Below, one piece after another: positions 17,174 to 18,967 of a stretch of 64,000 nt of DNA. Under the pieces are notes generated by a model that was not told the DNA's origin, ran no database searches, and saw only the letters and a program-made list of their open reading frames with translations. Source of the DNA: Candidatus Limnocylindrales bacterium (GTDB lineage: Bacteria; Chloroflexota; Limnocylindria; Limnocylindrales; CSP1-4); contig DASVYJ010000091.1 of the NCBI GenBank assembly GCA_036392215.1, positions 1,115-65,114 of the forward strand, given 5' to 3'. Each line of letters starts with the position of its first letter. The stretch's first letter is position 1. Both the position numbers and the translations under genes were made by a program.

Positions 17174-18967
17174 TCAGGCCTCGGCGATGACCCCGATGGA
17201 GACGCGGAAGCCGGCCCGCCGCTGGCCCGGCGGCATCAGCGTCCCCTGCCCGATCGGCTGGTCGCCGGGGAACCAGCGGGCCCACTCGGCGTTGAAGGCG
17301 TCGAACTCGGAGGCGTCGCGCAGTGACCAGTTCGCCCAGACGATCTTCTCGAGCGAGCTGCCCGCCGCCTCGAGCTTCGCCTTCAGGTTCGTCAGGCAGA
17401 GCCGGGTGTGGTCCTTGGTCGAGCCCGGGACGACCTTGCCCGTCTCCGGGTCGAGCGGTCCGACGGAGGAGACATAGACCATGCCGCCGGCGACCACGAC
17501 GCGGCCGGTCCCGACCGGGACGGGGGCCGCCTCCGCCCCGCCCTGGCGCGCCCCGAAGCGCGACTTCTGCGGTCGGATGGGCTTCTTGCGGTCCTCGGGC
17601 GGGATCCCGAACTCGCCCGGTGGGAGCTCCACGCCGGCGGCCCGGAACTGGCCCATGAAGGTCGGCCGGACGCCGGTCGGCCGCAGCGTGCCCTGGATCC
17701 GGCCGTCCTCGCCGACGCCGGTCTGCTCGAAGACGAAGATGTCCTGGGTCAGGATCTCGTCGTCCTCGATGCCGTAGACCTCGGTGATGTTGACCACCTT
17801 GCGGCTGCCGTCCTTGAGCCGGGCGGTGTGGACGATGAGGTCGACGGCCGAGGCCATCTGCTCGCGGATGGCCCGCAGCGGCAGCTCGTAGCCGGTCATC
17901 AGGACCATCGTCTCGAGGCGGCGGAGCATGTCCTTCGGGCTGTTGGCGTGGCCGGTCGAGAGCGAGCCATCGTGGCCGGTCGTCATGGCCTGGAGCATGT
18001 CGAGCGCTTCGCCGGCGCGGCACTCGCCGACGATGATCCGGTCGGGCCGCATGTGCAGGGCGTTCCGCAGCAGGTTGCGGATCGTGATCTCGCCCTCGCC
18101 CTCCAGGTTCGGCGGCCGCGACTCGAGGGTCACCACGTGCTCCTGGCGGAGCTGCAGCTCGGCGGCGTCCTCGATCGTCACGATGCGCTCGTCGTTGGGG
18201 ATGAACGACGAGAGGACGTTGAGGGTCGTCGTCTTGCCGGAGCCCGTCCCGCCGGAGACGAAGACGTTGAGCCGCGCCTCGATGCAGCAGCGCAGGAAGT
18301 CGAACATCTCCGGGGTCGCCGTCCCGAAGCGGATGAGGTCATCGACCGTGTACGGCTTGGCCGCGAACTTGCGGACGGTGATGACGGGGCCGACGAGCGA
18401 GAGCGGCTCGATGATGGCGTTGACACGGGACCCGTCGGGCAGCCGCGCGTCCACCCGCGGGCTCGACTCGTCGAGGCGGCGGCCCATCGGGCTGATGATC
18501 CGGTCGATCACCCGCAGGACGTGCTCCTCGTTGAGGAAGCTGCTCTCGACCCGCTGGATCTTGCCCGCCCGCTCGATGTAGATGCGGTTCGGGCCGTTGA
18601 CCATGACCTCGGTGATGGTCTCGTCGCGCAGGAGCGGCTCCAGGGGCCCGAACCCGGTGATGTCGTCGACCATCTCCTCGACGAGGCGCAGCCGCTCCTC
18701 CCGCGTGACGGGGAACGAGTTGCGGCTGATGATCGAGTCGACGATCCCCTCGATCCGCTCCCGGACATCCGTCGTGGAGCCGTCGAGGAGCGAGTCGAAG
18801 GCCCCGATGATCTCGTCCTGGAGGCGGAGGCGGACGTCGTGGAGGAGATCGGCGCGGGAAGGGACGCGGCCGGCCGGCGCCCCGCCCGCCGCCGCGGGCG
18901 TGGCGACCTTGGCAGCGGCGGCGTCGGCCGCCTGTTGGGCCCGCTCGACTCGACGGAGCAGCGACAC
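17174..18967 (-). CDS. CpaF/TadA-family secretion ATPase fused in-frame to a C-terminal RidA (YjgF/TdcF) domain
   Basis: GTG start ([12 protein letters not shown]...) preceded by GGGGGAGG. Walker A [17 protein letters not shown]. Walker B / His box region [30 protein letters not shown]. The C-terminal ~125 aa ([18 protein letters not shown]...[13 protein letters not shown]) is a RidA domain with no intervening stop. Confidence 0.8.
   Translation of the reverse strand: [597 protein letters not shown]

Follow-up and report, generated by a model that had tools for sequence, protein, structure and literature searches.

A CpaF-type secretion ATPase fused to a non-canonical Rid-fold domain is conserved across the class Limnocylindria

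The DNA analysed here (the window) is a stretch of 64,000 nucleotides of contig DASVYJ010000091.1, from the Candidatus Limnocylindrales assembly GCA_036392215.1, with positions counted from its first letter. It contains a gene on the minus strand that encodes a CpaF/TadA-type secretion ATPase continued in frame into a domain of the Rid (YjgF) fold. We confirmed that the in-frame fusion is real and not an artefact of assembly or sequencing, and that the gene is conserved throughout the class Limnocylindria, rather than being a one-off of the source genome. The lineage-wide CpaF-Rid architecture represents a known motor in a form not yet described. As a working interpretation, which we regard as quite possible but short of probable, the protein may be a Tad motor specific to Limnocylindria, in which the Rid module serves as a built-in cap or gate of the C-terminal face.

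The coding sequence (17174..18967, minus strand; open reading frame (ORF) list and Pfam) starts with GTG, ends with a TGA stop at 17174-17176 and specifies 597 aa. An initial annotation of this DNA had read a single frame at 17174-18967, and this was borne out exactly. On the minus strand one frame runs from 19114 to 17174 without a stop, so that it stays open for 49 more codons 5' of the GTG (18968-19114) and gives a spurious maximal ORF of 646 aa. The 49-codon extension was without counterpart in the homologues. The true start is the GTG at 18967, with biological support, because a Shine-Dalgarno sequence, GGGGGAGG (18975..18982, minus strand; read from the sequence), lies 7 nt upstream of it, and because the N-terminus that it defines matched the family N-terminus MSLLxRVERAQQ. 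The encoded product was 100% the same as P0001, a protein annotated in a Candidatus Limnocylindrales metagenome-assembled genome (MAG).

A domain search, which the initial annotation had proposed as a check, called two Pfam domains in one polypeptide, T2SSE at 8.6e-62 and Ribonuc_L-PSP at 1.4e-14 (54.5 bits, where the cut-off is 27.3). The junction between the two parts was clean, and the frame across it was continuous. A separate Rid protein made from an internal start was considered and rejected, because the tether between the two parts contained no convincing Shine-Dalgarno sequence and start. The gene is apparently monocistronic, and the window had no match to any Rfam family when scanned for a riboswitch or leader.

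The search for the same fusion in related genomes, also proposed at the outset, was answered at several levels. Searching 5.8 billion protein clusters gave at least 120 matches, about 600 aa long and 72-82% identical, nearly all of which contained both PF00437 and PF01042. At least 116 independent clusters at 90% identity had this architecture, as confirmed by motif. A scan of GTDB with one genome per species, using only the junction and Rid region as the query, found the fusion in 357 species genomes. Almost all of the best 80 of these 357 were labelled Limnocylindria, Limnocylindrales, Chloroflexota or Chloroflexia, and in about 73 of the 80 loci the ATPase through the Rid domain was covered by a single in-frame tblastn high-scoring segment pair.

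Four loci from long-read MFD MAGs (L005, L036, L075 and L076, at about 8570-10516 in each) had the fusion gene split into two to four frames. These breaks are probably indel errors rather than signs of pseudogenes. Two copies came from bins labelled Verrucomicrobiia and Saccharimonadales (L047, DATLVO010000230.1, and L050, DASPHN010000010.1, respectively), where the gene lay on contigs of 71% GC. These are probably cases of mis-binning.

In a library clustered at 50% identity, the architecture collapsed to one full-length representative (P0125, 68% identity) and fragments. Within this library the fusion of Rid to CpaF was confined to the Limnocylindria clade, and no unfused version of the clade's Rid domain or ATPase was seen except for fragments. 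P0219, at 54% identity, was entertained as a second, distant fused lineage and rejected, because it proved to be a predicted protein of this family with many frameshifts.

A comparison of 59 genomes by codon put the ratio of non-synonymous to synonymous substitution (dN/dS) at 0.24 in the ATPase and 0.27 in the Rid domain; the tether had 0.51 and the N-terminal tail 0.49. The Rid domain is thus under purifying selection comparable with that on the ATPase.

Conservation within the protein was read from alignments of 23 family sequences (A1), of 119 (A4), and of the family against Escherichia coli RidA (A2). The ATPase body (aa 32-448; 17624..18874, minus strand) was delimited by phmmer against Caulobacter CpaF (9e24), in which query residues 32-448 matched CpaF residues 72-491 of 501 (8.3e-122, 411 bits). 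The best NCBIfam match was TIGR03819 (heli_sec_ATPase, a TadA-family ATPase associated with conjugal transfer), with 326 bits, below its cut-off of 373. The Walker A motif (aa 239-247, G239-T247; 18227..18253, minus strand), the Asp box, Walker B and the His box were all invariant in A1. The complete CpaF/TadA ATPase with Walker A and His box that had been claimed from the sequence was recovered with N-terminal domains 1 and 2 (NTD1 and NTD2), the C-terminal domain (CTD) and every catalytic box. By sequence, this part is a complete and catalytically intact CpaF.

The N-terminal tail (aa 1-31; 18875..18967, minus strand) is the equivalent of CpaF NTD0. In A1 it consisted of a conserved 12-letter motif followed by a variable Ala/Pro-rich segment, and selection on aa 1-60 was relaxed (dN/dS about 0.49). 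The MSLL motif at its start was invariant in the fused family, and was shared with operon-encoded CpaFs.

In Caulobacter CpaF, Asp208 of loop 8 and residues E331-G334 of the central loop have been mutated as contacts to the CpaG/CpaH platform (Hohl et al. 2024, PMC11300603). The corresponding residues, the Asp of RRxD166 and aa 287-293 (NLEGEGE, the central loop; 18089..18109, minus strand; aligned to Caulobacter NLEGSGA), did not vary among the 23 sequences and were conserved to 90% or more among the 119. On the opposite, retraction face, Lys345 (17933..17935, minus strand) occupied the position of Caulobacter CpaF Arg387, in an alignment of NSPRE with NSPKD. This position was Arg in 94 of 143 unfused CpaFs and K, R, P, N or other residues in the fused family.

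The nearest unfused relatives, P0133 and P0134, were about 60% identical and ended just past GVELP, exactly where the tether starts in the fusion. P0133 lies in an operon (L083, 1215-11250) with flp, a prepilin peptidase (or tadV), tadE, tadG, rcpC, secretin, tadZ, cpaF, tadB and tadC. This compact and complete tad operon is followed in L083 by a ComFA-like helicase gene and flagellar genes (flgM, flgN, flgK and flagellin). As a lead to an unfused CpaF or a tad locus of Limnocylindria, the closest unfused representatives were uninformative, since they came from unrelated taxa (Salipaludibacillus and Nocardioides among them).

The tether (aa 449-487; 17507..17623, minus strand) consisted of a conserved 12-letter motif and a variable K/R-rich segment (alignments A1 and A3), as expected from the Lys/Arg-rich linker described in the initial annotation. 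Its flanking motifs were 63-68 aa apart in 50 genomes, although the sequence between them was variable. AlphaFold2 (AF2) gave the approximately 40 residues low confidence, with a predicted local distance difference test score (pLDDT) of 33-67. The tether is thus predicted to be flexible and disordered, and is constrained in length.

The Rid/YjgF-fold domain (aa 488-597, about 110 aa; 17177..17506, minus strand; Pfam PF01042) is non-canonical. Its relationship to RidA was plain in a phmmer search of PDB, in which it matched PH0854 at 8e-16, and in hhalign, which gave 97% probability against E. coli RidA. An AF2 model of the C-terminal fragment, built with the 119-sequence alignment, gave pLDDT values of 86-97 for residues 60-168 of the fragment. 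Superposition of the modelled domain on RidA structures by Foldseek gave rmsd values of 1.3-1.6 A over about 110 columns with 24-33% identity. The modelled fold is complete. Modelling of the junction, as had been suggested, gave a confident Rid domain and a low-confidence tether; a full-length model with 23 close homologues had a mean pLDDT of 52 and was unusable, and the structural reading was taken from the C-terminal model.

The active site of RidA was not retained. Gly573-Gln574, within the motif PxGQxT (17246..17251, minus strand), replaced RidA Arg105-Ser106 and was invariant in the 119 sequences. Ser590 (17198..17200, minus strand), invariant or nearly so in A2, A1 and A4, stood in place of Glu120, and an invariant Trp in place of Lys73. 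Tyr17 corresponded to a variable residue beside a one-residue deletion, with no conserved aromatic. The E. coli RidA sequence in A2 was verified against PDB 1qu9. The local hhalign alignment ends before the Arg105 region, and the register there was taken from MAFFT, phmmer and full-length Foldseek alignments. No Arg was present within 7 residues on either side of the Arg105 position in any register. Since the residues that replaced those of RidA are themselves invariant, the former active site looks remodelled and not decayed.

The surroundings of the gene contained no other part of a Tad system. Among about 55 candidate genes in the window, Pfam detected no T2SSF, Flp, TadE, RcpC/CpaB, secretin or prepilin peptidase, in agreement with the earlier observation that no Tad or Flp genes are nearby. 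Eight Tad proteins of the P0133 operon served as tblastn and phmmer probes of the 1.32 Mb that surround 82 copies (the window plus the loci at ±10 kb per copy, the 20-kb flanks being less than 1% of each genome). They detected no gene for TadB/TadC, Flp, TadE/TadG, CpaB or a prepilin peptidase and none specific to TadZ; the sole matches were generic receiver/ParA proteins matching TadZ. When 1053 neighbouring ORFs from 77 loci were clustered, no family kept a fixed offset or reached beyond 17 loci, and the neighbours that did recur were generic (OmpR regulators, ADH, ligase, PD40 and kinases). The fusion gene was also stand-alone in two relatives on megabase contigs. The gene is thus an orphan by position, within 64 kb in the source and ±10 kb in 80 genomes, and in this positional sense its earlier description as an orphan stands. 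On these two megabase contigs, L001 (13120-13923) and L002 (11989-12765), a YgjP-like gene (PF01863) followed the fusion gene downstream at a distance of one or two genes. As a candidate conserved neighbour it was rejected, because it was not general in the 77 loci.

Our interpretation starts from the proposal that CpaF flips on its platform, engaging it through the N-terminal face when the pilus extends and through the C-terminal face when it retracts. The R387A mutation or a C-terminal mCherry fusion abolished retraction, while extension persisted (Whitfield et al. 2026, bioRxiv 10.64898/2026.02.24.707734). Rid proteins form trimers, and 3x-RidA proteins with covalent links between the units are known (PMC4433059). 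We suggest that the fused protein would still assemble a hexamer of the CpaF type. Because the platform-contact residues are invariant, this hexamer would be expected to dock through its N-terminal (extension) face on a TadB/TadC-like platform encoded elsewhere. Since proteins of the Rid type occur obligately as trimers, the six Rid domains on their tethers would most likely assemble into two trimers at CpaF's C-terminal face. These trimers may cap or gate the face needed for retraction, a suggestion prompted by the requirement for the C-terminal face to meet the platform during retraction and by the block that a C-terminal mCherry imposes. Such a cap or gate would bias the motor towards extension, or else would place its reversal under the control of a ligand of the remodelled Rid pocket. 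No enamine/imine deamination would be expected.

In support of a cap or gate we cite the drift at the Arg387-equivalent position, the constraint on tether length, and the tolerance of C-terminal fusions by other CpaFs. The more specific version, in which the Rid domain occupies or vacates the C-terminal face and so sets whether the motor inverts and retracts, would amount to metabolite-controlled directionality. We consider this version rather unlikely as it stands, the alternative to it being a CpaF exapted in the absence of a Tad pilus.

Several observations weigh against a capped or gated motor. The beta13-beta14 turn and the C-terminal motif PTG[VI]RPTF, both on the C-terminal face, were very strongly conserved in the fused family, which by the criteria of Whitfield et al. 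gives the protein the look of a dual-orientation, retraction-capable motor, and not of a degenerate extension-only one. Lys was the commonest residue at the Arg387 position in the fused family, a conservative change. The flexible tether of 40 residues could let the Rid domains swing aside. Finally, no Tad component was found in the window or in the 1.32 Mb around 82 copies, so that the probable TadB/TadC platform elsewhere in the genome is an assumption of the proposal.

The rival that survives best is exaptation, according to which Limnocylindria have no Tad pilus, the CpaF descendant works without TadB/C in a different process of the cytoplasm or membrane, and the Rid domain provides binding of a new partner or ligand. 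We hold this to be a minority possibility. Across 77 loci the gene is on its own, without a neighbour that is conserved, and no Tad component accompanies it in the 1.32 Mb of flanks. With 72-82% identity across the class and a single 50%-identity cluster, it is also more housekeeping-like than a typical pilus gene, and freshwater Chloroflexi including Limnocylindria have been reported to be without secretion systems beyond Sec and Tat (PMC6169038). On the other hand, the invariance of the residues that contact CpaG/CpaH (the loop-8 Asp and the central loop EGxG) and of the MSLL motif is hard to explain without a platform, and flanks that cover so little of a genome make absence from them say little.

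The Rid domain might instead contribute only to oligomerisation or stability, with a Rid trimer stapling the CpaF hexamer as a dimer of trimers and no gating or sensing. We judge this unlikely, at a level slightly below exaptation. Rid trimers and linked 3x-RidA proteins are known (PMC4433059), six being two times three suits a hexamer, and the length of the tether is constrained. However, the former active-site positions are invariant for W, G, Q and S, which suggests that a pocket or surface is kept for more than the packing of a trimer. Moreover, CpaF forms hexamers unaided, and a rigid trimer clamp would need to tolerate the large C2-symmetric rotary motions of the CpaF subunits.

The initial annotation had called the Rid domain canonical and had described the protein as a motor coupled to an enamine/imine deaminase. 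The fold was upheld, and the rest was not. A bifunctional protein with an active deaminase, perhaps tied to the pyrimidine-catabolism genes of the window, is in our estimate very improbable, despite the Pfam and PDB matches to the RidA family and the action of RutC-type Rid proteins in pyrimidine degradation (PMC8113886). Imine hydrolysis requires Arg105 (Niehaus et al. 2015, PMC4433059), and because Arg105 is replaced by an invariant Gly, Glu120 by Ser, and Tyr17 is not conserved, deaminase activity of the Rid domain is unlikely. The domain also scored far below every NCBIfam Rid cut-off, with 51.3 bits against 106 for TIGR00004, 42.6 against 169 for RutC and 28.7 against 222 for PRK11401 (enamine/imine deaminase).

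The metabolic neighbourhood that would give such an enzyme a role was not kept in other genomes. The window is metabolic in content, with a dihydropyrimidine dehydrogenase (DPD)-like gene, two molybdenum hydroxylases, aldehyde dehydrogenases, an aminotransferase and parts of a transketolase. The DPD-like gene (3203-6904, plus strand) is an ORF of about 1230 aa with Fer4_20, Pyr_redox_2, DHO_dh and Fer4_21 domains, resembling a fused dihydropyrimidine dehydrogenase; about 390 N-terminal residues were without assignment. Together with genes for an NCS1 permease (19928-21547, minus strand), a class-III aminotransferase (21666-23186, minus strand), a DHO_dh-like protein (23522-24646, minus strand) and an aldehyde dehydrogenase (24816-26447, plus strand), it has the look of an island for reductive pyrimidine catabolism. 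Only in the source is the CpaF-Rid gene part of such an island. A tie of the Rid domain to pyrimidine catabolism, by analogy with RutC, was therefore rejected; the context was not conserved and the catalytic residues were gone.

A lost stop, a frameshift or a mis-assembly joining two genes, which has in its favour only the few long-read MAG copies with local frame breaks and otherwise prior suspicion, can be dismissed. The same in-frame fusion was found in hundreds of assemblies made independently, by different projects and with different sequencing technologies. Besides fragments, neither the Rid domain nor the ATPase of the clade was seen unfused, and both parts are under purifying selection.

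Other genes of the window were noted in passing. The neighbours named at the outset, a metallophosphatase, a DHFR-like protein (RibD_C) and the NCS1 permease, were confirmed by Pfam. The large subunit of a CO-dehydrogenase/xanthine-dehydrogenase-type molybdenum hydroxylase was present as two abutting ORFs (12278-13621, plus strand, with Ald_Xan_dh_C and MoCoBD_1; 13624-14652, plus strand, with MoCoBD_2), and genes for CoxG and the FAD and 2Fe-2S subunits lay upstream of this split subunit at 10489-12285. The second molybdenum hydroxylase (44460-48117) was unsplit. At 54926-57031 (plus strand), a UPF0261 gene with N- and C-terminal domains adjoined a PEP_hydrolase-like gene; this conserved pair gave very strong Pfam scores.

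The architecture had been called unfamiliar, and no paper describing a fusion of CpaF and RidA was found in the searchable literature. Searches on CpaF with RidA, and on Limnocylindria with pili, returned nothing relevant, apart from the statement that freshwater Chloroflexi have no outer-membrane secretion systems. Database records of these proteins already exist under the names 'CpaF family protein' and 'ATPase, T2SS/T4P/T4SS family', and carry precomputed assignments of both Pfam domains.

Current work asks how one Tad ATPase can power pilus extension as well as retraction, and the flip model rests on point mutants and an artificial mCherry block. A whole class of bacteria with a folded, strongly selected domain tethered to the C-terminal face provides a natural experiment to test the inversion model, and CpaF-Rid could reveal a new form of regulation of type-IV-filament motors. 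If ligand gating is true, it would be a natural, metabolite-controlled answer to the directionality of the Tad motor. The family also defines a Rid-fold lineage in which all former active-site positions are replaced, mostly by invariant residues, and offers a structurally tractable case of an Arg-less Rid. Limnocylindria are uncultured bacteria that abound in soils and freshwater, and a conserved variant of a surface motor bears on their ecology.

Among known systems, Caulobacter CpaF (9e24, 8rkd) is homologous to the fusion over NTD1-NTD2-CTD, with the ATPase boxes and the platform-contact residues conserved. It differs in that the fusion has a tether and a Rid domain, lies outside a tad operon, and has drifted at the Arg387-equivalent position. 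The CpaF-mCherry construct of Caulobacter (Whitfield et al. 2026) likewise has a globular domain on the C-terminus of CpaF, at the retraction face. In contrast to that artificial protein, the present fusion is natural and class-wide, with a tether of about 40 aa and a domain that normally trimerises, and its effect on directionality is a proposal.

The Rid domain shares its fold and significant sequence matches with RidA/YjgF/UK114 (1qu9, PH0854 2dyy, TM0215 2b33). Unlike RidA, it has Gly for Arg105, Gln for Ser106, Ser for Glu120 and Trp for Lys73, has lost Tyr17, and is a domain of a motor ATPase instead of a free protein of about 125 aa. The Rid4-Rid7 subfamilies also have no catalytic Arg (Trp in Rid4 and Rid7, variable in Rid5 and Rid6) and keep the Glu and a Tyr or Phe; they are presumed not to be imine hydrolases, and their function is unknown (PMC4433059). 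The Rid domain of the fusion resembles them in having no catalytic Arg. It differs from them in what stands at the three places, with Gly for the Arg, Ser for the Glu and, for the Tyr, no aromatic residue that is conserved. Compared by published signatures, it appears to fit no described subfamily.

Some other CpaF homologues among the protein matches (P0143, P0170, P0200, P0230, P0238 and P0002) had C-terminal RcpC/CpaB, TPR or PQQ-like beta-propeller domains, and one was a tandem CpaF-CpaF; some of these may be gene-calling fusions. In MshE and PilB, an N-terminal MshEN domain binds c-di-GMP, and the known regulatory domains of such motors are N-terminal and c-di-GMP-binding, whereas the C-terminal additions found on other CpaFs are Tad components or repeat domains. 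The CpaF-Rid protein is like these domain-extended secretion ATPases in having an accessory domain on a hexameric motor of the PilT/VirB11 class, plausibly for regulation or docking. Unlike that of MshE and PilB, its extra domain is C-terminal and of the Rid fold.

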